From Trueperaceae bacterium (GTDB lineage Bacteria > Deinococcota > Deinococci > Deinococcales > Trueperaceae): a stretch of 64,000 nt of DNA. Positions 31,934 to 46,763 of the stretch are shown piece after piece. The DNA is taken from contig JAXHNB010000005.1 in NCBI GenBank assembly GCA_034520945.1, positions 544,001 to 608,000 of the forward strand, in the 5' to 3' direction. The translations under genes were made by a program, and so were the position numbers. Positions within the stretch are counted from its first letter, which is position 1; every line of letters starts with the position of its first letter. The notes beneath the pieces were generated by a model, which searched no databases, was not told the origin of the DNA, and saw nothing but the letters and a program-made list of their open reading frames with translations.

Positions 31934-32848
31934 GTGCGCCCGGCAGGGCGCGTTCACTTGGAGGTGAGAGTCCTCTGCAGGCCCGGCAAGGGGAACTGCT
32001 AGCCGATGGCAAGGGTGCCCGTCGTGAGGTGGGATCTGAAGGAAGCCGGAGGCAAAGCGCTGGCCCGACGAATAGGAATCGCATAGGAGGCGGTCATGCT
32101 GGATGAGGAGTCCAAAGTCTCTGAAGTCCGGTTCTTGCACGGAGGGTATGGCCGTAGATGCGGCGGGCATAAGCGTGAAGGTGGATGCGCATTACCCGGG
32201 GAGGCCTACCGGTTGGCCTGTGTGCTACTGGCATCGAGAGGTGCTGGGATGGGCCGGTAGGAGTCAGCCGAGGGCGTAGTAGGTCCTTCGACCGGACTGA
32301 AGGCCTGAACAGGGAGTGACGGACGGAGCTCGAGTTTCGATGGTGAGTGGAGACGCAGACAAGATGGCTGGGATGCCTGATTCCCACCCGGAGAGTAGCG
32401 GCCGGATGTCGCTGGGGCATGGGTTGGGTGCGTCAAGCGCCACGGCAGCGAGGGATCACTCCGATCCGGAATTGCTGGTGTTGATGGACGTGGTGGTCGA
32501 ACGCGGGAACATGACTGCGGCCTACAAGCGGGTGGTTGGCAACAGGGGTGCAGCGGGCGTGGATGGCATGTCCGTTGATGACTTGAAGCCGTGCCTGAAC
32601 GAGTGTTGGTCGCGGGTGAAGGAGGAGTTGTTGGCTGGTCGGTACGAGCCGGCGCCGGTGCGGGTTGTTGAGATTCCCAAGCCGGGCGGTGGGGTGCGTG
32701 TTCTTGGCATTCCGACGGTGATGGACCGGTTGGTGCAGCAGGCGTTGCTTCAGGTGTTGTCGCCTGTTTTCGATCCTGGCTTTTCCGAGTCGAGCTATGG
32801 GTTCCGCCCTGGCCGGAGTGCACATCAGGCCGTGTTGAACGCACGATC
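31934..32848 (+). mobile_element. Group IIC intron, 3'-truncated (ribozyme D1-D3 plus start of RT ORF)
   Basis: 5' GTGCGCCCGGCA; IIC-type motifs GGTGAGAGTCC, GCAAGGGTG, ATCTGAAGGAAGC, TTACCCGGGGAGG and AGTCAGCCGAGGGCGTAGTAG; begins 10 nt after a terminator hairpin; D5/D6 not found. Confidence 0.9.
32340..32848 (+). pseudogene. ltrA: Group II intron reverse transcriptase/maturase N-terminal fragment
   Basis: NRGAAGVDG (RT0), VEIPKPGGGVRVLGIPTVMDR (RT1-2), SYGFRPGRSAHQAV (RT2a); cut before RT3 and YADD; start codon uncertain. Confidence 0.9.
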
Positions 32849-33464
32849 CTCTCGTTCCGACGTTCGTGGGGTCGTTTTGCGGGGGGTTTCGGGGGGGCGT
32901 GTTTTGCGTGTCAGGCGTTGGTGTAGCGTTCGGTGGGGATGTTGAGCAGGTTCAGTACTTGGTGTTGGGTGTTAGTGAGGGTGATCGGGTAGGTGTGCAG
33001 GATGGTTCCGTTGTGGGTGATGGCGTGCCGGGTGATGCCGGCGTAGAGCTTGAGGATGAGGTTGCTGGTGGGTCGGCTGGTGGGGCGCCCTTCGGGGTAG
33101 AGCGGCAGGCCATGAATGTGGTGGTGGGTCATGGCTTGGCGTAGTTCGCGTTCGATGAGGGCGCCGGTGAGGAGCGCGAGGAAGTCGATGATCAGGAGGG
33201 CGTGGATGCGGCCGGGGTTCTTGAGCAGGACGGGCGCGATCTCGAGGCCGCTCTTGGCGTCGCTGAAGCGTCGTTCCACGCCGTGCTGGCGCTTGTGCGC
33301 GTCGAGCGCCTGCTCGGGCGTGAGGGTGCGGTCGTTGCTGATGAGGGGGAACATCCCATCGCTCGCGCGCGTGAGGGTCAGCGCTTCTTCATTGACATGG
33401 TGGTGGATGGTCCACTTGCGTTTGTCGACGCGCTTGTAGGTGGTGTTCGGTCCGGGCCGGCCGG
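32849..33464 (-). mobile_element. IS1634-family element, 3' remnant (transposase C-terminus and right end)
   Basis: Minus frame GRPGPNTTYKR...DGMFPLISND...HKRQHGVERRFSDAKSGLEIAPVLLKNPGRIHAL (stop at 32911); terminus CTCTCGTTCCG interrupts the RT. Confidence 0.78.
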
Positions 33465-34742
33465 TGGACCTCCCCCGGCGAGGTGGACCGGGCTTGGGCG
33501 CCTTGGATCATGCGGGCACCGTCCTGCGAGCGTACTGGGTTTCCCACTCCACTGGGGTGAGCATGCCCAGGGTGGAGTGACGCCGACGCTGGTTGTACGT
33601 CACCTCCAGCCAGAAGAAGAGCGCGGTTCTCAGTTCCTCCCTCGACCGCCACGCGTGGCGGTCGAGGAGCTCCGTCTGCAACGACGCGAAGAAGCTTTCC
33701 ATCACAGCGTTATCGTGGGGGCTTCCCCGACCGCTCATGCTACTGACCAGGCCCAAACCGGATAGCGTCTCGCCGAAACGAATCGAGGTGTACGTCGCTC
33801 CGCGGTCGGAGTGATGGATCAGGCCGCCGTTCAGGTCGCGCCGGCCGGCGGCCATGGCGACGGCGTCGACCACCAGCTCGGTGGACGCCTGCGTACCCAT
33901 GGACCACCCCACGATCCGTTTCGATGCCGCATCGAGGACGGCCGCCAGGTACAACCAGCCGTCGTCCGTAAGGTGCTGCGTCACGTCCGCGAACCACACG
34001 CGGTTGGGCACCTCCACCTCGAAGGCACGTTGGATGCGATCCGGCGCGACGCGCTCCGCCAGTGAGGCCTCCTGCGCCTTGCGGCGGCCCTGCTTGCGGC
34101 GGTGCACCCCCTGCAAGCCCGCAGCCCGCATGAGGCGCTCCACGCGCTTTGTGGAGACGTACCAGCCGTGCTCCAGGCGCAGCTCGGCGTGCACCCGTGG
34201 TGAGCCGTACGTGCCGTCCGACGCGGCGTGAATCTCACGGATGACGCGAAGCAGCTCATCGTCCTCCTGGGCCCTCTGGGACGGCGGGCGGTCCCGCCAG
34301 GCGTAGTACCCCGCCCGAGCAATGTTCAGAACGCGGCACATGGTTCTGACGCTGTGGTTCGCCTTCTCCGCATCGACGAACCGATAGACGCTTACCGCGT
34401 CGATCGGTCGTCCGTCGCGAAGAAGGCTGCCGCCTTTCGGAGAATCTCCCGTTCCTCACGCAACACGCGGTTCTCGCGTTTCAAACGGCGGATCTCCGCG
34501 CTTTCCTCGACCGCCTGCGGGTTCTCCTGGACTTCGGCGTCCCGCACCCACTTCCGGATCGAGTACGCGCTCACGCCCAGTTCCTCCGCCAGTTTCCGGA
34601 AGCCCTTGCCGCTCTCCCGGTAGAGGCGTACGACCTCCTGTTTGTACTCGCTGCTGTACCGCTTGGCCATTCGGACCAGTCCTTTCCTTCCCGGAACCTA
34701 CCAGGAAGCAGTCACATGGTCCACGAGGCCGGAGGAACTCCA
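33465..34742 (-). mobile_element. IS3-family element (1,278 bp): orfA 34392-34670, orfB 33508-~34395
   Basis: 25-bp imperfect IRs TGGACCTCCCCCGGCGAGGTGGACC / TGGAGTTCCTCCGGCCTCGTGGACC; HTH orfA; DDE orfB (WFADVT, HHSDRG, DNAVMESFF); no target duplication. Confidence 0.93.
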
Positions 34743-34959
34743 CACCCACACCAGCCGCAGTACCTCCCTGATCTTCCGCATCGAAACCCTCTTTCCAGGC
34801 ATGCGGCACCTCCAACGGCACCGTACGCCCCCAAGAATCCCCAACCCGCACCCCACCCCGGGAGGCTGGCGGAATCGATCGGAATCCGGTGGCGCCATCA
34901 ACCGGAATCAGATGGCGACATGAATCGGAATCAGGTGGCGACAACGACCGGAATATCCA
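34743..34959 (-). mobile_element. IS21-family left end plus first 20 codons of istA, cut by the IS3
   Basis: TGGATATTCC terminus, ~23-bp internal repeats (GCCACCTGATTCCG-like), MPGKRVSMRKIREVLRL from 34802. Confidence 0.85.
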
Positions 34960-35963
34960 TCGCTGAAGAACGACAACCGGACCGGCACCAGTTCCGCCTG
35001 ATCCAACTTCGCGCGGGCGCCCTCGGTGGCGTCGATGGCGAGGACCACCACCTCCCCTTCCGCGGCGGGCGCCACCTGCAGGCGCGTCACCAGCTCCGCC
35101 AGCCACTCCAGGTACAGCTCGGCCGCCAGGGCGCTGAACCCGTAACGGTCCGTGAGTTCGTGGTGCATGCCCTCCCGCGCAGCGGGCGCGCCCGGCAGGA
35201 TCGCGCCGGCCGGCACGTCCAGCTCCCCCGCCTCGCGCGGGTGGCGCTGCAAGACCCAACGGACCTGCTCGACCTCGAGCGTGCTCCACCCCACCCGCGC
35301 GGCCAAAACCTCCGCAGGTGCCTCGTGCGCGTCGCGCACGCGCACGACCCCAGCCAGCAGCGCCTTCCAGGCCGACGGCGTCACGCCCAACGCGGCGCGT
35401 TCCTCCTCCAGCGCGCCTCCCGCCAGGAGGCGCCCCACAAGCCACGCCACCACGCCCAACGCCTCCAGCTGCTCCTGGCGACCCCCGACGTGCGGCAGCC
35501 ACACGCCCGCCTCCCGCTACGGCTGGAGGCGGCCCGCCAACGCCGAAGGGGACAAGCTCGCCCACGCCCCCACGTCCGCCAGGCTCGCCCACCCGCCGGC
35601 GCGGTGCACCTCGAGAAGCCACCGCACGATCCGGGCGCGCTGCAGGCCCGCAAGGCCCCACGCCTCCCACGCCCACCTGTCCTCCAGCACGTCCACCGCC
35701 GTGATCATCACCGGCGCCCGCCGTGCCGCCGAGTGCCGCCTGGAACGCGTCAGCGGCGCAGGCAAGCGCACCTGTCCCGGCAGGACCGCCAACCCCAACG
35801 ACGGCAACCACCCCAGGCTCGCGCGCGCCAACACCTCCGCCTCCAAGGGGCTACGACCGAACTCCACCCGCAACGCCCGCTCGATCACCACCCCCACCCC
35901 CTTCAAGCGCACCGAACGCATCTCGAACGCGATCCGTTGCCGGTAATTCCGAACCCGACCCAC
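34960..35963 (-). pseudogene. DUF1670-like ORF1, copy 1 (in-frame TAG at 35517-35519; truncated by IS21)
   Basis: Clear paralog of 38049-39626 (LQRARIVRWLLEVHRAGGWASL, WLPHVGG, AIDATEGARAKL, LVPVRL). Confidence 0.85.
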
Positions 35964-36019
35964 CCCGTCACCCCCTCCAAGACAAGAACGAGGAGGCTAT
36001 CGTACTGGCAAACCGCTAT

Positions 36020-37997
36020 CCCGCCTTCGACACCTCGTGGGCATGCGCGGGGGTGGGGTCGTGCGTGGGACGGGGTTCGTAGGGTCGTAGGTGCGCGTCG
36101 GGGGGCTTGCGATGGGCATAAGCTTGTGGATAACGAGCTTGTCCTGTTCGTAGGTGACGTGCTATCGTGTGGGCATGTACGTTCGGGAGGTGAAGTCGGG
36201 CGGGCATGCCTACTTGTCGTTGGCGCACAACCGGCGCGATCCGGACAGCGGGCAGGTGAAGGCGGAGGTGCTGTACAACTTCGGTCGGAAGGACCGCATC
36301 GACCAGAACGCGTTGCGGCGCCTGGTGCGCAGCCTGGCGCGGTTCCTGGAGCCCGGCGAGGTGGAGCAGTTGGCGGGGTCGGGCGCGCTGGGCGACCTGG
36401 GCGCGTTCGTGCGGGCGAAACGGCTGGGCGGCACGCACGTGCTGGACGGGATCTGGGCGCGTCTCGGCATCGACGAGGCGTTACGCGGGCTGTTGAAGGC
36501 GCGGCGGTTCCGCACGCCGGTCGAACGGCTCCTGTTCGCGTTGGTGGCGCAACGGGCGTTGAACCCGGGCAGCAAGCTGGACGTGGAGTCTTGGGTGCGG
36601 GACGAGACGCACGTGAACGGCCTCGAGCAGCGTGGACGTGCAACAGCTCTACCGCGCCATGGACTTCCTGCTTGAGGCGCACGACGAGATTCAACGCGAG
36701 GTGTTCTGGAGCGTCAGCAACCTCTTCAACCTCGAGGTGGACGTGATCTTCGTGGATACCACCAGCGTGTACTTCGAGATCGAAGGCGAAGACGAGGCGC
36801 CCGTCGACGACGAGGCTGGGAACGGCGACGAAGGCGAGGGCGACGAGGGTGCCGAGGGCGCCGAGGCCTTGCGGATGCGCGGGCACTCCAAGGACGCCCG
36901 GCCGGACCTGGCGCAGGCCGTTGTGGCGTTCGCCGTCACCCGCGACGGGATTCCCGTCCGGTGTTGGGTGTGGCCCGGCAACACGGCGGACGTGAACGTC
37001 GTCGAGGAAGTGAAGCGGGACCTGAACGATTGGAAGCTGGACCGCGTGATCGTGGTGGCCGACACCGGCTTCAACATCGCAAGCGAACCGCCGCACCCTG
37101 CAGGGCGCGGCGGACGCGTACATCCTGGGCGAGAAACTCCGGCTCGGACCGAACGGCACCCTGCCGGAGGCGTTGCGGCGGCCCGGCCGGTACAAGACCC
37201 TTCAGAACGGGTTGCGGATCAAGGAGGTCACCACGCAGCGGGGCAGCGTGATGGCCCGGCGCTTCGTGGTGGTGCACAACCCTGAGCAGGCCAAACGGGA
37301 CCAGGCGAAACGCGACGAGATCGTCGCGGACACCGAGATGCGCCTCGCGAACATGAACCAGCTCGACGGGGAGGCGCACACCAAGGCCGCGTGCGACCTG
37401 CGCGCGCACCCGAGCTTCGGGCGGTACGTCCGGCAGACCAAGACCGGGCTCTTGCGGTTGGACAAGGGCAAGATCGCGCGGGAGGCGAAACTGGACGGGA
37501 AGTTCCTGGTCAGCACCAGCGATCCGCACCTCCCCGCCGAGGACGTCGCCATGGGGTACAAGCAACTGCACGAGGTGGAACGCGTCCACCGGGACTTGAA
37601 GCACACCGTCGACGTCCGGCCCGTCTACCACCGCCGAGCCGATCGGATTCGCGCGCACATGATCCTCTGCTGGCTGGCGCTCCTCCTGATCCGCGTGGCG
37701 GAGAACGAGACCGGCCGGACCTGGTTTCAGCTCAAACGAACCCTGCATTCCTTGTCCGTCGCGGAGCACACCACCGAGGCCGGCCCCATCGTGCAAACCA
37801 ACCGGCCCAACACCGAGCAGAAAGCCGTCCTGGACGCCGTGAACCTGAGACCACCCCCCAGGTACCTGGCGTTCCCCACCCCCACCAAGGCCGCCTGAAG
37901 GCGTAGACACAAACCCCAGACCGCCTTCAACGGCCGTTCTAGCGTCCCACACTTCCCGCACGGCCGATCCTTATGACCACCAACTGTCGAGCGCGGG
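36020..37997 (+). mobile_element. IS1634-family element; transposase 36175-37898 with two frameshifts (~36630, ~37080)
   Basis: 25-bp imperfect IRs CCCGCCTTCGACACCTCGTGGGCAT / CCCGCGCTCGACAGTTGGTGGTCAT; FVDTTSVYFE, GHSKDARPDL, WPGNTAD, VVADTG and YKQLHEVERVHRDLK motifs. Confidence 0.88.
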
Positions 37998-38048
37998 ATA
38001 GCGGTCATGTGGTAGGAAGGGGTACGTTCTTGGGTTGGGAGGGTGCTG

Positions 38049-39626
38049 GTGGGTAGGTCGCGGCGGTATCGGGAGCGGATCGAGGCGGAGACGCGTTCGG
38101 TGGCGGTGAAGGGCGTGTCGGCGGTGATCGCGCGGGCATTGCGAACGGAGTTCGGCCGGAGCCGGATGGAGGCGGAGGCGTTGGCGGCGCGGAGCGTGGC
38201 GTGGCTGCCGGCGTTGGGGGTGGGCCTGGCGCCGGGACGAGCGACGCTGTCGGTGCCGGCGACGGCGTCGCGTCGTTGGGCACGGGAGCGCAGGCGCATG
38301 GCGACCCTATCGCTGGTGGACGTGGAGCGCGACACGGAGGCGTGGCGGCGTTGGGGCTTGCCCGCGCTGCAGCGGGCCCGGGCGGTGCGCTGGCTGCTCG
38401 AGGTCCACCGGCAGGGGGGTTGGGCGAGCCTGAGCGAGGTGGCGGCGTGGGCGAACCTGACGCCGACGGCGCTCTCATCGCGGTTGCGGCCGTTGCGGGA
38501 GGTGGGCGTGTGGCTGCCGCACGTCGGCGGGCCGGCGGCGTCGGACGCGGCGTGGGGCGTGGAGGCCTGGCTGCTGGGTCGGCACTTGGGGGGCGGCGAC
38601 CTCGCGGCGGCGCTGGAACTGGCGGGGTATGGCGATGCGGCATGGCGGGGGGTGCTGGAAGCCGCCGCGCGGATGATGGCGCTGCATGAGGCCGGCACCG
38701 AACCCGAGGAGATCGCGGGCGTGGTGGGGCGCAGCGTTCGCGAGGTGCGCGAGGGCCTGCGGGTGGTCGCGGATCACGGCGGTCTGGACCTCCCCGCGGT
38801 ATCGGCGCTGCCTCCCTCGCAGGCACGGGGGGAGGAGATCGAGGGGGAACTGGTCGAGCGGTTCGGGTTCTCGCGCGTGGCGGCGGGCCTGTACCGGGCG
38901 TGGTTGGCGCGCCTGGCGGGCGAACTGGCCGCGCCGGGCGCGGGCGAGGGCGAGCTGACCTTCTTCGCGATCGACGCGGGCGAGGGCGCCCGCGCGAAAC
39001 TGACGGAGGCGAAGCTGGTACCGGTCCGCCTGACGTTCATCACCGACGCGGACCTGGCGTTGGGGCCGCGCGGGCTGGTCCCGACGCGGGTGGCGGAAAT
39101 GAAGTTCGCGCGGATCGAACGGCTCGCCCGCCAAGCCCGTGAGCAGGGCGCCCTGCTGACCCTGCCGGACTTGGCGGTCCTGCTCGGAATGCACGTCGAC
39201 GCCATCCGGCATCACCTGGCGGAGCATCCCGACGTGCTGGTCCCCACCCGCGGGCGCGTCAAGGACATCGGGCGGGGCGTGAGCCACAAGACCTGGATCG
39301 TGGAGCTGTACCTGCAGATGCACTCCGAGAGCGAGATCGTCGAGCGCACCCAGCACGCGTACGAGAGCGTCGAAGCGTACCTCAGGGAGTTCGCGCGGGT
39401 GTTGATCCTTGCCGATCGCGGCATGAACGCGGTGATGATCCGGCGCGTCACGCACCGCTCGATGTCACTGGTGAACGGCTACCTCGAGTTGTACCGGCGT
39501 TACGACCGGCCCGAGCATCACTTCCGGTTGTCGCAACTGCGTGACGCGTTCACCCGCGAGGACCTCCTCGGCGGCGAAAAGGGGGGGCACCACCGTGCTT
39601 CCCGTACCGGGGACGGCACGCCGTGA
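38049..39626 (+). CDS. DUF1670-like protein ORF1 (one degenerate and one full repeat)
   Basis: QAREQGALLTLPDLA...VPTRGRVKDIGRGVSHKTWIVELYL...TQHAYESVEAYLREF; GTG start aligned with copy 1. Confidence 0.75.
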   Translation: MGRSRRYRERIEAETRSVAVKGVSAVIARALRTEFGRSRMEAEALAARSVAWLPALGVGLAPGRATLSVPATASRRWARERRRMATLSLVDVERDTEAWRRWGLPALQRARAVRWLLEVHRQGGWASLSEVAAWANLTPTALSSRLRPLREVGVWLPHVGGPAASDAAWGVEAWLLGRHLGGGDLAAALELAGYGDAAWRGVLEAAARMMALHEAGTEPEEIAGVVGRSVREVREGLRVVADHGGLDLPAVSALPPSQARGEEIEGELVERFGFSRVAAGLYRAWLARLAGELAAPGAGEGELTFFAIDAGEGARAKLTEAKLVPVRLTFITDADLALGPRGLVPTRVAEMKFARIERLARQAREQGALLTLPDLAVLLGMHVDAIRHHLAEHPDVLVPTRGRVKDIGRGVSHKTWIVELYLQMHSESEIVERTQHAYESVEAYLREFARVLILADRGMNAVMIRRVTHRSMSLVNGYLELYRRYDRPEHHFRLSQLRDAFTREDLLGGEKGGHHRASRTGDGTP

Positions 39627-40567
39627 CCTGGCAGCACGAGGTGTTCGGCCCCATGCTGGAGCGCACCCTGGAGAACGCCCAGGTGCACTGCCTCGCCACG
39701 CGGTACGACCTCTCCCGCGACTCTCGCCTCGCGCGCGCCATCGTCACCAAGGTCAATACCGCCCTCGACACGGAAGAGCGAAGGCGCGGCGTGCAACGCG
39801 TCCATACCGGCGAACTGCTGATCCGCACCGGCCGCGGCCCGCTCGTCCTGCCGCTACGCACCCCAGAACTGCTCCAGCGCGTCATTGACGGTGAACGCTG
39901 GGACCGCGTGCGACGCGACATCCTCACCGAAAGCGCCGATCGGTACCGACAGCTGTTCCCCGACGCGCACCCCCAAGACGTGCGCGACTTCCTCCGCGCC
40001 CTCTATCCCGGCCGCATGCCACGCACGGCCGGCACCCATCCCGCCGTCGGGCCGCGCCGCACGCGCCCGTGGGGAAGCACCATCCCCGGCGGCACGCCCG
40101 CCCCCGAGCTGGACCTCGCACGGGCGGAACGCCGCACGCAGCGCGGCCCACCCAGGCCCGCCCACGAGCAAGACACCCTCATGGCCCTCACGCGCTACCT
40201 CGGCACCGAGGCCGGCATTCCCCCAGCCGTGCAGGAACCGATGCTGCTCGAGTTGAGCGCGCTACGCGCCCGTTTCCACCCCCGCGTCGGCATGCTCGCC
40301 AGCGGCCACATGCCCCTCGCCGCCATGCACGCCGATGCCGGCCGGAACCTCTGGCGCGCCAGTCGCGACCAACCCCTCGCGCCCATCACCATCAGCGTCC
40401 TGCAAGGTGGGTATTCCAGGCGTTTTCGGCCACCGATTCCACGGGAAAGCGGCCACTGATTCCACGGGATTCCGGCCACCTGTTCCAGGGGATTTCGGCC
40501 GCCCTTCCCGGGAGGGGTAGGGCGGGAATCTCGTTGGGCTTACGGTGCTTCCGTGAGGGGAGGCCGT

Positions 40568-42160
40568 ATGCCGAGGAAGAGGTTGTCGATGCGGAAGGTC
40601 AGAGAGGTATTGCGCTTGTTGTGGGGCCAGCGTCGGAGCGCGCGGGAGGTGGCCGTAAGCTGCAACCTGGCACGCAGCAGCGTCCGAGAGTACGAGCGGA
40701 GGGCCGAAGCTGCGGGCTTGTCATGGCCGCTGCCGGACGTGGACGACGGGACGCTGGAGAACACGCTGTTCCCCCCACGGCCTGGGGCGAAGGAGGTCGA
40801 ACGGCCGTTGCCGGACTGGGACGCGGCGGACCGGGAGTTGCGGCGGAACAAGCGGGTGACGCGCCTCCTTTTGTGGGAGGAGTACCGCGCAGCGCATCCG
40901 CTGGGGTACGCGTACAGCAAGTATTGTGAGGGCCTGCGCACCTGGCGTGACTCGCTGGACGTCTCCATGCGGCAGGTGCATTACGCGGGCGAGAAGGCGT
41001 TCGTCGATTACGCCGGGGACACGATTCCCATCGTCGATGCCGCTACGGGCGAGGTTCGCGACGCGCACGTGTTCGTCGGGGCGTTGGGCGCCAGCCAGTA
41101 CGCGTACGTGGAGGCCACCTGGACGCAGGCCCTGCCGGACTGGATCGCGTCGCACGTGCGGATGCTCGCCTACTTCAGGGGGTGCCCCGAAATCCTCGTG
41201 CCCGACAACCTTAAGGCCGGCGTGAAGAGCCCGCACCTGTTCGAGCCGGAGGTCAACCCGACCTACCTCGAGTTCGCGCGGCACTACGATGTCGCGGTGA
41301 TTCCCGCCCGCCGCCGCCGGCCCAAGGACAAGGCGGTGGTGGAGTCGGGCGTGCAGGTGGTGGAACGCTGGATTCTGGCGCGCCTCAGGAACCGGACGTT
41401 CTTCACGCTTGCGGAAGCGAACGACGCGATCTGGGCGTTGCTGGAGGAGTACAACGAGCGGCCGTTCCAGAAGCGGCCCGGCTCGAGGCGCTCCATGTTC
41501 CTGGAGCTCGACCGGCCGGCCTTGCGGCCGCTGCCCGCCGCGCGGTACGTGTTCGCGGAGTGGTCGAAGGTCCGACCGCACATCGATTACCACGTCCAGA
41601 TCGACAAGCACTTCTACAGTGTCCCCTACCAACTCCGCAAGAAACAGCTCGATGCGCGCGTGACGGCCTCGACGATCGAGGTGTTCCACCGCAACGCGCG
41701 GGTGGCGAGCCACGCCCGCTCGTACCAGAAGGGCGGGCACACCACCGTCAAGGAGCACATGCCCAAAGCGCACCAGGAGCACGCCGGCATGACAGAAGAG
41801 ACCTTATTCGCGTGGGCTGGCCGGATGGGGCCCGCCACCGTCGCGTTCACGGAGGGCGCCATCGCCGCGCGGACGCACCCGCAGCAGGCGTTCCGGTCCT
41901 GCGTTGGCACCCTGAACCTCGGCAAGACGTACGGCAACGACCGGCTCGAGAACGCCTGCGCGCGCGCCGTGAAGCTCCGCTCGTACTCCCTCAAGAGCGT
42001 CAAGGCGATCCTGAAGAACCGTCTCGACGAGCAACCCCTCGAAACGCCCCAAGCGGCCGCCCCACCGAAAACGCAGCATGAGAACGTCCGCGGCGGCGCG
42101 TACTACGCGGCTCCCAGCGAGCCTCGCGAAGAAGAGCAGGAGGGCCAGCCGGCATGCTGA
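40568..42160 (+). CDS. istA: IS21 transposase IstA
   Basis: FVDYAG, VPDNLK and [11 protein letters not shown] motifs; YSVPY. Confidence 0.95.
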
Positions 42161-42914
42161 CGCACCCCACGCTCGAGAAACTCCGGACCCTGCAGTTGCG
42201 CGGCATGGCTGCCGCCCTCGAAGACCAAGCCCGCACGCCCGACATCGAAACCCTCTCCTTCGAAGAACGATTGGGACTGCTGTTGGACCGCGAGGAAACG
42301 ACCCGCGCCGATCGGCGCCTCAAGACCCGCCTCACCCAAGCGAAACTACGCGTGCCGGCCAGCATCGAGGACATCGACTACCAAGCGAAACGAAACCTGG
42401 ACAAGAGCGTCCTGCTGAACCTCGCCAACTGCAATTGGATCGAGCGGCACCAGAACCTCGTCATTACCGGCCCCACCGGCGTCGGCAAGACCTACCTCGC
42501 CTGCGCCCTCGCGCACAAGGCCTGCCAAGAGGGCCACAAGGCCCTCTACCAACGCCTCCCCAGGCTCCTGCACGACCTGGAGATCGCCAAAGGCGACGGC
42601 CGCTACCGAAGCATGCTCGCCAGCCTCCAACGCATCGATCTCATCGCCCTCGACGACTGGGGGTTACCCCCATGAGCGACACCAACCGGCGGGACCTCCT
42701 CGAACTCCTCGACGACCGCTACGCCACCAGAAGCACGCTCATCACCAGCCAACTGCCCGTCGACGCCTGGCACGACTACCTGAACGATCCCACCCTCGCC
42801 GACGCCATCCTGGACCGCTTCATCCACAACGCCCACCGACTCGACCTACGCGGCGACAGCATGCGCAAAACCCGCGGCCGATTGACAGACCACCAGGCCA
42901 CAAGCAACAGTTAA
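42154..42914 (+). CDS. istB: IS21 helper ATPase IstB, frameshift near 42665
   Basis: [16 protein letters not shown]; continues in another frame (ITSQLP...ADAILDR...GDSMRK). Confidence 0.9.
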
Positions 42915-43778
42915 CCCACCTGCCCGCCCCCCAGGGAGAGGGCGGCCGCAATCACCCGGAACGGGTGGCCGGATAACCCCGGAATCACCGGCCGGAATCA
43001 ACCGGAAACGGCGGCCGAATAGCGTGGAATAGCCACAAGGCACCGAACGAGGCACCCTGCAAGCCAACCCGCCCGCCAGCGGCGACGCGTACCTCCAGCT
43101 TCACGGCACCCGCATGGCGCGCGCCCTCAGCGAAGCGTACCTCCAAGACGGCCTGCTCTCCTTCACCGAACTGCAGTGGATCTTCCTCGCCAGCCACGCC
43201 AGCGTCTCCCGCGCCATCGACCATTACCAACGCACGCACCACGTCATCCTGCCCTGCCCCGGCACCGTCCTCGACATGGGCCGCATGCTCACCCACAAGG
43301 ACCTCATCATCAAACTCCATCTACAAGGCCACACCGTCCTCGAGATCAGCGACCGCACCCACCACAACCCCCGCAGCATCGACGCCTACCTCAAAACGTT
43401 CGACGCCGTCCTCATCCTCAAGACCTACCACCTCCCCACCCCCCTCATCGCCACCGTCCTCGGCCACGGCCAAGAACTCATCCACGAATACCTCGACATC
43501 ATCGACGCCTACCTCAAACCCACCCACGCCATCCGCGAACACCTCCAACAACGAGGCGTCACCATCCCCACTCAAACACCACATGCCGGTTGACACAGCA
43601 AGGTCCACACCGGCGATCCGTCCGTTATCCTGGGACACGGTCGCTCTCCTTTCTGGGTCACGAGCCCGTCAGTTACAGATGGGATGTAGAGGCCGCCCTC
43701 CGCCTGACGCAGTCACCCGTCGCGGGGCTGCTCTACCCTGTGGTGACGGGCTGGGTTGGCCCGGAAGGGAGGACGGCC

Positions 43779-44859: not shown

Positions 44860-45207
44860 AGTTCGCGCTCGGCGCGCGGCACGGACGAGGATCGCACCTG
44901 GGGCGTGCCCACCTTCCGGGACGGGTGACTGCGACGGCTGGCTCTGGCTCTACGAAGCCGCTTTACAGAGTGCAGCACCCAACTTGGATGTACCCCACCC
45001 TGCACCGAGCCGACCTACCGGCTCACCACGAGTGCGCATGGAAGAACAAGGCAAGGGCACCCCCGCATCAAGGCGCGCACCCCGCCCGCCACCGCCAGGC
45101 GCGACCGGCCCGTCAAGAACTACAAACCGCACCCAAGCAAACGCGGCGAAAACCACACCCCCGCGTCGGCGCCAACCTACGTTGACACGAAGCGGCCTCA
45201 ACATGGA
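44860..45207 (+). ncRNA. Predicted seek/bridge RNA region of the IS1111-type element
   Basis: GCTGGCTCT (44937-44945) is the reverse complement of the right flank AGAGCCAGC; TTACAG (44963-44968) matches the left flank; CATGGAAGA (45037-45045) matches the circle junction; boundaries approximate. Confidence 0.7.
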
Positions 45208-45448
45208 AGAGTGCAGCACCCAACTTGGGTGTACCCCACCCTGCACCGAGCCGACCTACCGGCTCACCACGAGTGCGCATGGAAGAACAAGGCAAGGGGA
45301 CCCCGCATCGAGGCGCGAACCCCCGCCCCCACCGCCAGGCGCGACCGGCCCGTCAAGAACTACAAACCGCACCCAAGCAAACGCGGCGAAAACCACACCC
45401 CCCGCGTCGACGCCGCCCTACGTTGACACGAAGCGGCCTCAACATGGA
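44967..45448 (+). repeat. 241-bp tandem duplication (44967-45207, 45208-45448) of the IS right end
   Basis: Two near-identical units, each ending TTGACACGAAGCGGCCTCAACATGGA, with scattered differences. Confidence 0.95.
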
Positions 45449-46763
45449 AGAGCCAGCGGGGCGCGGTCCCGCCCTGCGATTGGTGTCGATGGTTCCGCTA
45501 TTGGTCGCGGCGATCCTTCGCCCCGGTTGGTGGCAGCCCTACGTGAGTTTGGGACTGGGACTCACCCTCGGGTTCGTCGTGTTCACGATCTCACTGGCGG
45601 GACAGGTGTTGGCGGTGATCGCACTCGCTGGCCTAACCACGCTGCACGCGATTCGCAACCGCAACGCGTTGATCCAGCACGTCAAGGCCGTCGCGGTCCG
45701 CGCGTCGGTTCTTGTCGCGCTGGTAGCGGTGGGATTCACATTCGCGCTGCAACTCGTCGAGCCGGAGGCCATTCAGGTCCTCGGCGGGGGCGTCAACCTA
45801 ACGGACGTTCGCGAGCCGGAGGAGGAGGACCTGACGAAGGACAACCTGCGCCAAACGTTCAGGGAGCGCGGGGTGTGGATCGCGGACGCGCTCCGTCGCG
45901 GTGCAGAGCGCTTTCCGGTCGGGACGGGCGCTGGCAGCACGCGGCACATCTTCTCGTCGATCCAGTCCCACCCTGGCGTCGAGTCCGTCGACGTCCACAA
46001 CTACTACGTGCAGACGTTCATGACGCTGGGGCCCATCGGCGCGCTTGCACTGGTCTGGTGGTTGTTCGGTGCGGTTCACCTTGCATTCCTGCGTGGGCGT
46101 GTTGCGCTCGGCGTCGCAGGTGTCCTGTTCGCGATTCACCTCGGCTTCGACGTTGCCGGCTACTTCCCGGGCGTGATGATGAGCTTCATGCTTCTTGCTG
46201 GTGCGGGGGCCGCGACGGAGAAGCGGGCGTTTGCGCTCCCCAATGGGAGTGCTCCCGCGCACCGCATGCTCGGACTCGTCGCGTTGGTGGCGGTGTTCGC
46301 GTTCGTGGCGTACTGGGCGGTGTGGTCGCTTCCTTGCCAGGAACTCGATTGTGCCCTTGGGCGCCGCCTGGCGGAGCGAACCACGGTATCGGACGTCATG
46401 GCGCGTTCGACCGAGGCAGATCGGCTGCGCCTGGCCGCAGGGGCGGCACGCCTGAATCCCGATTCGTTGGCGGAGCGCCGTCGATTCGTCCATGAACTCG
46501 AGACCACGGTGTGGCGTTCCGGCGTGGATCCGTTGCCCGTGCTGCGCGAGCATGAGCGCTTGGTCGATGACTTTCGCGTGGCGGATCCCTACATCTACTG
46601 GGATTGGATCGAAGCGGCGACGCGCGCGGGAGATCGCGAAATGGCGTGCGAAGCTCGCCTTCGAGGATGGCAGGTGTTCGGCTTTCGCGGTTCGCACGTC
46701 CTTGCGCCGTCAGAGCGCTCTGCCGATGCGATGCAGGAGCCCGTGACGGTGCACTGTCGGTGA
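45449..46763 (+). CDS. O-antigen ligase/pilin glycosylation-like membrane protein, 5' end possibly lost to IS insertions
   Basis: Multiple TMs; R..VW...PVGTGAGS...DVHNYYVQTFMTLGPIG and IHLGFD motifs of Wzy_C/WaaL type; lies in a pilin locus. Confidence 0.7.

Follow-up and report, generated by a model that had tools for sequence, protein, structure and literature searches.

Overlapping DUF1670 genes beside an IS1634-family insertion sequence: a candidate two-gene mobile element and its landing site

Can two genes for DUF1670 (PF07900) proteins make up a mobile element of their own? This question is raised by a stretch of 64,000 nt from a Trueperaceae bacterium (assembly GCA_034520945.1, contig JAXHNB010000005.1, positions 544,001 to 608,000; here called the window, G+C content about 67%), in which two overlapping open reading frames (ORFs) of this family directly adjoin a decayed insertion sequence (IS) of the IS1634 family. 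To our knowledge, all well-studied prokaryotic insertion sequences use DDE, DEDD, HUH, serine or tyrosine enzymes. A sequence-only reading of this locus had proposed a mobile element of a new class, consisting of a two-gene DUF1670 unit with short inverted ends and no known transposase. We compared the unit with related loci, 21 of them fetched from species genomes and 74 from metagenomes, and modelled both proteins. The copy in the window is dead. We lean slightly towards regarding it as the remnant of an IS-like element of about 3.0 kb, which has two overlapping DUF1670 paralogues as its only genes and probably moves by an undescribed mechanism.

Ends, copies and an empty site

The gene pair has the predicted layout. 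The GTG start of ORF2 at 39623 overlaps the stop codon of the 525-aa ORF1 (GTGA), and ORF2 opens to a continuous frame of 445 aa once an IS21-family insert and one CAAGG are removed. That ORF1 and ORF2 are paralogous is evident from BLASTP (34% identity over 148 aa, E 2e-20) and from hhalign (probability 99.7% over 231 columns), and the family membership suggested in the first reading holds for both: ORF1 matches PF07900 with E 4.4e-47 and 160.7 bits, the C-terminus of ORF2 with E 1.2e-30 and 106.9 bits, and an intact ORF2 homologue from locus L028 with 118.4 bits, at a gathering score of 25 bits.

After subtraction of the IS21 element and one CAAGG the window copy, copy 1, measures 2966 bp, compared with 2794–3076 bp in eleven other loci. 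Its left end reads ATAGCGGTCATGTGG... and its right end ...ATGCCGGTTGACAC. The left ends of the window subfamily begin with ATAGCGGT, for which ATACCGG and ATAGCCC also occur, and continue with ATATGGTAT-like bases. The left terminus at 37998 had been placed correctly, as ATAGCGG is kept in the relatives and forms an exact boundary at the empty site described below. The right terminus had not. Alignment of the flanks of homologous pairs shows that the homology stops 5–7 nt past the ORF2 stop codon, in ..ATACCATAT-AGCGGTTGAC-NN; the end in the window is therefore moved to 43596, and the CCGTTAT(CC) at 43622–43630 that had been taken for it belongs to unrelated flanking DNA. The 9-bp inverted repeat built on it is at chance level, since 176 of 300 shuffles also produced an inverted 8-of-9 match between the flanks.

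The last codons and the stop codon of ORF2 sit inside the right terminal repeat (..GGTTGACNN). An inverted core of 12–15 bp is formed by ATATGRTGGTAT and ATACCAYCATAT in the window subfamily, and by ATATGATGGTTTAAA and TTTAAACCATCATAT in a sister subfamily. ATAGCGGT occurs outside this core at both ends in direct orientation, which makes the ends asymmetric. Inside the left end, TGnTATATT-like bases look by eye like a candidate extended -10 promoter. Just outside, ATAGCGG is preceded by the same dinucleotide that follows TTGACNN in 11 of 12 loci with two ends (GG/GG in six, AG/AG in five); these loci are not independent of each other, and counted by lineage the figure is 7 of 8.

That the unit moves is argued by several lines of evidence. 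The overlapping paralogues are the only genes between the conserved ends, and in pairwise DNA comparisons the similarity breaks off abruptly on either side, with different flanks beyond. Loci L045, L047 and L048 are 100% identical over 3080 nt, and further near-identical units in different flanks were found in L069/L070/L071, L065/L067 and L080/L081. Contig L008 (3010 bp) contains nothing but the element, one G to its left and AG to its right. The search for further copies yielded identical units in different surroundings; it did not yield a genome with many full copies. In the genome of the window itself (10 contigs, 3.47 Mb) there is one full DUF1670 copy, one partial copy and no other. Strong pairs are present in 3 of 364 species genomes of the phylum, in none of ten other genomes of the genus and in none of the 14 in the family sample. 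From this patchy distribution we conclude that the unit was acquired horizontally.

The search for empty alleles gave one base-exact empty site. In genome G041 the element (locus L006) lies within a multi-copy miniature inverted-repeat transposable element (MITE) of about 225 nt, of which nine uninterrupted copies from G041 and its relatives were compared. Four of these (L133–L135 and L138) belong to the same variant as the interrupted one and read ..AAAATCCGG|CCACTGGCC.. (in longer form ..GGTGTCAAAATCCGG|CCACTGGCC..), and between exactly these bases L006 carries ATAGCGG....GGTTGACAG(GG). The insert is 2978–2980 bp long, the GG being the sole ambiguity. At the orthologous locus of three relatives the flanking genes are 205–424 nt apart, as against 3521 nt in L006; a base-exact empty allele was not obtained there, the intergenic DNA of these relatives being too diverged. 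The MITE itself has terminal inverted repeats CTAAGTGGGGG.../...CCCTTACTTAG and a central palindrome (L129–L138 in G041, G372 and G373; L006:5869–5946 and 8927 to about 9070). Dozens of copies occur in G041 and its relatives, frequently at contig ends.

Taken together, it is very likely that the element family is mobile and site-specific, and the proposal of a mobile element is upheld to this extent: the pair comprises all genes between conserved ends, occurs in differing flanks and has left one empty site to compare with.

Probable insertion beside IS1634-family tips

The first reading had seen no known transposase. For the profiles of ORF1 and ORF2 this is correct, as detailed below, but a decayed IS1634-family gene directly upstream, which is part of a separate IS, had been overlooked. 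This transposase gene (36154–37898) is spread over three frames (36154–36675, 36617–37285 and 37050–37898), and its intact homologues match the NCBIfam model NF033559 with E 1e-105 and 7.9e-106. The inverted repeats of the window IS have the form CC-N4-TTCGACA ... TGTCGA-N5-GG; an IS1634 right repeat can be written ..CTGTCGAA-N4-GG. Solo IS1634 copies in genome G042 end in ..CTGCGGAA-CNCR-GG in five of five tips, which is compatible with the end consensus C-----YT given for the family, along with a size of 1.5–2.0 kb, by De Palmenaer et al. 2008 (PMC2266710). Since the solo tips end in CNCR-GG, the left end of the DUF1670 element directly abuts the last base of the IS1634 element. The same solo copies show that the 4 nt between TGTCGAA and GG are part of the IS repeat and do not form a variable spacer beyond it. 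With the IS1634 repeats closing at 36020 and 37997, the DUF1670 units stand outside them, and a DUF1670 unit placed between IS1634 inverted repeats together with an NF033559 transposase was not found.

The association is polar. An IS1634 transposase homologue is present in 23 of the 95 fetched loci, in addition to the window. Of the 12 loci in the window subfamily whose upstream flank is 1.8 kb or longer, 8 have it upstream, and seven of these eight genes are on the same strand, so that their 3' end faces ORF1. In the sister subfamily it is found downstream and convergent (8 of the 12 loci whose downstream flank reaches 1.8 kb or more) and never upstream (0 of 7). Insertion takes place in one orientation, directly after the terminal RG of CTGYSRAA-N4-RG. 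This sequence is the tip of an IS1634-family repeat and, in one genome, a look-alike in a multi-copy MITE. The footprint is at most the repeated RG, and the IS1634 tip is left intact.

Four observations indicate that the DUF1670 element seeks IS1634 tips and is neither their cargo nor their target. Identical DUF1670 units adjoin different IS1634 elements (L070 and L071). In L029, as in the window, two DUF1670 left ends sit on both tips of a single IS1634, the pair in the window being only about 50% identical at the protein level. The two subfamilies face the same IS motif with different ends. Finally, the L006 MITE site offers a TGTCAAA-N4-GG motif without any IS1634. It is therefore likely that the DUF1670 element targets the tips rather than the reverse.

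The coordinates of the features in the window are given in Table 1. The second, diverged copy that had been noticed beyond the IS1634 element is confirmed: it is 50.6% identical to residues 8–351 of ORF1 (tblastn) and shares GGATAGCGGT and the leader motifs with copy 1. Its left end abuts the second IS1634 tip, its frame is broken near 35517, and it ends after about residue 351 of ORF1 at an IS21-type end. The window copy is dead; ORF2 is split by the IS21 element, copy 2 is truncated and the IS1634 transposase is frameshifted. Two different element lineages occupy the two tips of one IS1634; the break in ORF2 of copy 1, made by one IS21 element, and the truncation of copy 2 by a second IS21 end came later.

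Table 1. Mobile-DNA features around the DUF1670 unit (positions in the window)
Feature	Position	Strand	Basis or remark
DUF1670 element, copy 1	37998..43596	+	ends from comparison with relatives and from the L006 empty site
ORF1, 525 aa, intact, two tandem DUF1670 modules	38049..39626	+	PF07900
ORF2, 5' part, residues 1–261	39623..40407	+	
ORF2, 3' part, DUF1670 module	43041..43593	+	PF07900; in frame once IS21 is removed
Flanking GG, last two bases of the IS1634 right inverted repeat	37996..37997	+	candidate crossover or duplicated core
IS21-family insert splitting ORF2	40408..43035	+	NF033546 E 2.5e-80 (istA), IstB match, terminal inverted repeat
DUF1670 element, copy 2, diverged	~34914..36019	-	tblastn 50.6% identity; inverted repeats; third-codon-position G+C (GC3) frames
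Second IS21-type left-end fragment, truncating copy 2	34745..34954	-	23-nt terminal repeats, istA start
IS1634-family IS, 1978 bp	36020..37997	+	NF033559 over cut-off; inverted repeat; tips from solo copies

The IS21 insert in ORF2 is 2628 bp long, has imperfect terminal repeats of 93 nt and is flanked by the CAAGG duplication (40403–40407 and 43036–43040). A second copy on contig C9, 99.9% identical over 2628 bp, fixes its limits and, together with the duplication, indicates that this element was recently active. The IstB match spans only profile positions 162–234 in an ORF of 278 aa, and istB may be frameshifted or its start miscalled.

On the right-hand side, the 72 nt between the DUF1670 element and the next IS (43599–43670) match nothing that was tested. 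From 43671 to beyond 45200 follows an IS110-family element (DEDD_Tnp_IS110 and Transposase_20), of which a 99.9% identical copy lies on contig C6. Its 3' region contains a tandem duplication of about 241 nt with 94–98% identity (repeats at 44967–45452). Further remnants of mobile DNA occupy positions 32562–34700 on the other side. There, a reverse-transcriptase fragment (RVT_1, E 6e-9, covering only the first 54 profile positions) stops beside the C-terminal piece of a second IS1634 transposase (32911–33507, minus strand), and next to this piece lies an IS3-type element (33508–34697, minus strand).

The two proteins and the search for a catalytic domain

The N-terminal half of ORF1 matches PF07900 only weakly (E 0.0072). 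In the Atlas structure comparison, however, residues 10–271 and 259–507 each align to single-module proteins of about 270 aa. From these two results we conclude that ORF1 is a tandem of two DUF1670 modules. Homologues of ORF1 (108 at E ≤ 0.001) are mostly about 528 aa long and match PF07900 in all cases. Among the clusters with recorded contigs, 82 of 106 have none longer than 6 kb and many have contigs near 3.0 kb, which is a hint only, as the collection consists mostly of short contigs. The family as a whole comprises 782 representative clusters at E ≤ 0.001 and is present across many bacterial and archaeal phyla; most of the listed proteins are about 265–290 aa or 505–535 aa long. Proteins of about 930–952 aa with three matched stretches account for 4 of the best 150 (P0110, P0111, P0114 and P0117). 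In P0110 (930 aa), ORF1 (E 5e-59) is fused to ORF2 (E 2e-52), and this natural fusion supports a joint function of the two proteins. In the fetched loci the pair is maintained down to about 30% identity.

Across 60 modules with 24–36% identity, the most conserved stretch is PTRG-x3-D-x-G-x-G-x-S/T-H-K (R401, G402, D406, G408 and H413). H436 and Y444 are near-invariant too, and D374 and R358 are also conserved. A spacing reminiscent of tyrosine recombinases, H413...GHS-x5-Y444, was set aside, since the stretch is predicted as an ordinary helix-turn-helix (HTH).

DUF1670-like sequences also occur outside such pairs. In L020–L024 and L091–L097 a lone ORF1-like gene (about 40% identical, residues 1–410) is present without ORF2. 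A conserved hairpin rich in G+C precedes it, and several metagenome-assembled genomes (MAGs) of Bacillota have similar DNA upstream; this may be a DUF1670 gene that has been domesticated and does not move. Proteins of more than 1000 aa from G032, G040, G167–G178 and G224 (family f5 and others of the phylum) contain a weak DUF1670-like segment (profile positions about 35–148, E 1e-4 to 5e-10), so the DUF1670-type HTH module may have been reused in large proteins.

Structure prediction, which had been proposed as a way to place the proteins, gave confident AlphaFold2 models for ORF1 (predicted local distance difference test, pLDDT, 90; predicted template-modelling score, pTM, 0.80) and for the intact ORF2 homologue from L028 (pLDDT 84, pTM 0.74). 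The accompanying Foldseek search of the ORF1 model against the PDB returned nothing at E ≤ 0.001. Both models are nearly all helical with two beta hairpins each, and their C-terminal parts are similar to HTH and winged HTH DNA-binding domains of the MarR, LysR, DeoR, TrpR and LuxR types (Z about 5–6.6). A wide VIA-align search with both models gave best Z scores of 6.5 and 7.6, with helical bundles and HTH proteins only, which is in the range of helical noise. By sequence, a profile search of solved structures did not reveal a relative either (best E 0.23, HTH proteins of the Lrp/AsnC type). The predicted complex of ORF1 with ORF2 had a median score of 0.22 at a mark of 0.32 and counts neither way.

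Profile searches agree with the models. In Pfam at E ≤ 0.01, ORF1 and the 3' part of ORF2 match PF07900 only, and the 5' part of ORF2 matches no family; relaxing to E ≤ 1 added sub-threshold rows only. NCBIfam at E ≤ 0.01 gave no match for ORF1 or either part of ORF2, and PADLOC and PHROGs at the same threshold none for ORF1, the L028 ORF2 homologue or ORF0 (see below). No DDE- or rve-type profile matched ORF1 or ORF2 in Pfam or NCBIfam. An RNase H-like fold is not among the VIA and Foldseek rows, although whole-protein searches can miss single domains. Pfam matches to a serine resolvase domain, to the Phage_integrase domain of tyrosine recombinases and to HUH proteins (Y1_Tnp/Rep) are lacking in both proteins, and no His-hydrophobic-His is found among the conserved columns. 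DEDD_Tnp_IS110 and Transposase_20, readily found in the neighbouring IS110 element, are absent from both. A relationship between ORF1 and the IS1634 transposase was considered and rejected (hhalign probability 0.6%).

A link to IS1634 does exist in the sister subfamily. Its leader of 330 nt contains a small gene for 82–92 aa, here called ORF0 (for instance L018:38–316 and L076:2343–2591), which has no match in Pfam. Over 53 aa, ORF0 and the N-terminus of the IS1634 transposase next to it share 40% identity (E 3e-7).

A possible mechanism, its rivals and known systems

How might such an element move? There is about an even chance, or slightly less, that the pair itself is the catalyst, as the first reading supposed in proposing an autonomous element with a two-subunit recombinase. 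Tentatively, we propose that DUF1670 represents a new class of recombinase or transposase built from HTH modules, which acts as a hetero-oligomer of two paralogues and inserts conservatively and in one orientation at a 2-nt core, with one branch homing to IS1634 tips as a parasite of a parasite and a sister branch having captured the end-binding domain of the IS1634 transposase, as ORF0, for its target selector. ORF1 and ORF2 would work as one multi-HTH complex that binds the IS1634 tip as well as the subterminal repeats, ATAGCGGT/ATATGG, and would perform or direct conservative recombination at the 2-nt core in a manner resembling serine recombinases or IS110. An excised intermediate is probable under this scheme. 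The best candidate for an active site would be the PTRG-x3-D-x-G-x-G-x-S/T-H-K segment, and in the sister subfamily ORF0 probably supplies the recognition of the IS1634 end.

Several observations weigh against this proposal. The searches of both proteins brought up no catalytic fold or motif; both models resemble arrays of HTH domains, in which H436 and Y444 fall into an ordinary-looking turn and recognition helix. The window copy is itself the exception to the rule of the repeated dinucleotide, as the GG at 37996–37997 is partnered by AG at 43597–43598, and even where the dinucleotide is repeated it may be a 2-bp duplication, a crossover core or simply the element's own last bases. There is only one exact empty site, and it comes from a MAG. 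A right-to-left junction, as expected from a circle or a tandem, is present in none of the fetched loci, and no genome with many full copies can be shown, the window genome having just one full and one partial. IS1634 target duplications of 5–6 nt are missing around L011, L035, L076 and L080, so that the order of insertion was not recovered there. Moreover, the tight link to a DDE element and the kinship of ORF0 to its transposase are likewise compatible with a dependence on IS1634.

Such a dependence is the most serious rival. The DUF1670 proteins might only bind the ends and choose the target, or act as regulators, while cleavage is left to the IS1634 DDE transposase or to a host recombinase. 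The all-helical multi-HTH models without a catalytic fold speak for it, as do the polar and base-exact association with IS1634 tips, the homology of ORF0 and the fact that an IS1634 transposase over the cut-off is present in four of five element-bearing genomes. Yet the ends of the element are unlike the IS1634 inverted repeats, and its footprint is 2 nt, whereas an IS1634-type duplication is 5–6 bp long. The fifth genome, G041, which is a MAG and has the clean insertion, contains only sub-threshold IS1634 fragments. The wide occurrence of DUF1670 across bacterial and archaeal phyla does not suit a helper of IS1634 either, and two large paralogues kept down to 30% identity would be an odd load for a passive element. 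On balance we consider this explanation rather unlikely. It is very unlikely that the roles are reversed and IS1634 inserts beside pre-existing DUF1670 ends, with the DUF1670 unit having no preference of its own. Adjacency alone is symmetric evidence, and no target duplication marks the later arrival; however, IS1634 would then have to recognise two sequences, the left end of one subfamily and the right end of the other, whereas the IS tip alone explains both. Two diverged DUF1670 copies standing head to head on one IS1634 (window and L029), the L006 insertion at a tip-like motif of a MITE in the absence of IS1634, and the lack of a duplication around the IS1634 of L076 or L080 are further arguments against it. 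So is the target preference of the family, which according to PMC2266710 is for AT-rich tracts of 5–6 bp without site specificity.

Could the pair instead belong, as cargo or accessory genes, to a longer IS1634-type transposon whose parts move together? Transposase, ORF1 and ORF2 do occur together in many loci, and in L071/L076 and in L080/L081 a common DUF1670 unit plus IS1634 is joined to different far-left flanks. This is nevertheless highly improbable: the complete pair of IS1634 inverted repeats excludes the DUF1670 unit, identical units stand next to different IS1634 elements or next to none, the two are combined in two opposite arrangements, and contigs of about 3.0 kb carry the DUF1670 unit alone. 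A resident, non-mobile pair of transcription regulators in an IS-rich island, finally, would agree with the HTH-type folds and with just 1.3 copies in the window genome. This is hardly credible in view of ends that are conserved, units that recur unchanged between different flanks, a base-exact empty site, the patchy occurrence of the pair and a stop codon that falls inside the terminal repeat.

Whichever partner provides the catalysis, a widespread family (782 clusters in Bacteria and Archaea) behaves like an IS with only two paralogous DNA-binding proteins, and DUF1670 annotations should be taken as mobile DNA. If the pair is the enzyme, it would constitute a new class of recombinases with base-exact, orientation-specific insertion, which would be of interest for genome engineering; if it is not, a new type of hitch-hiker that exploits another IS would have been found. 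Either way, the homing to IS1634 tips is a clear and testable case in which one mobile element serves as the landing pad of another. A full-text literature search for DUF1670 and PF07900, which did not extend to ISfinder, found no paper. What is new is a long form of the element with double-module proteins, its homing to the tips of IS1634, an empty site that is exact to the base and shows a 2-nt footprint, natural ORF1–ORF2 fusions and an ORF0 derived from IS1634.

Among known systems, the DUF1670 element comes closest in its behaviour to IS110 and serine-recombinase elements, and in the choice of its target to Tn7 at attTn7, but matches the profiles of no known transposase class. Elements of the IS110/IS1111 group (DEDD enzymes, for example IS621 with its bridge RNA) insert in an orientation- and sequence-specific way without a real target duplication, share a 2-nt core between donor and target, have asymmetric ends and frequently choose repeats or the tips of other elements as targets. 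The DUF1670 element is like them in the specificity for orientation and sequence, the candidate 2-nt core, the asymmetric ends and the landing at the end of another element; it differs in having two paralogous multi-HTH proteins in place of one enzyme, and these lack DEDD domains. Serine recombinases, such as those of IS607 and the large serine integrases, exchange strands conservatively at a central dinucleotide and leave no longer duplication. The repeated 2 nt seen here are the footprint expected of them, and fit a 2-bp duplication equally well; unlike these enzymes, the DUF1670 pair has no match to a resolvase domain and no alpha/beta catalytic domain in the models. With IS1634 there are two points of contact, the N-terminal domain of its transposase in ORF0 of the sister subfamily and the right end TTGACA, which resembles TTCGACAG of the IS1634 repeat, but the DUF1670 element lies outside the IS1634 repeats and leaves a footprint of 2 nt instead of 5–6 bp. 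In Tn7, TnsD reads attTn7 and directs insertion at a fixed position and in fixed orientation beside the recognised sequence, which is spared. The DUF1670 element, with 3 kb and two genes, without homologues of TnsA, TnsB and TnsC and without a 5-bp duplication, is of a different make; it is alike in inserting at a fixed place directly adjacent to the sequence it seeks, so that the IS1634 tip is spared.

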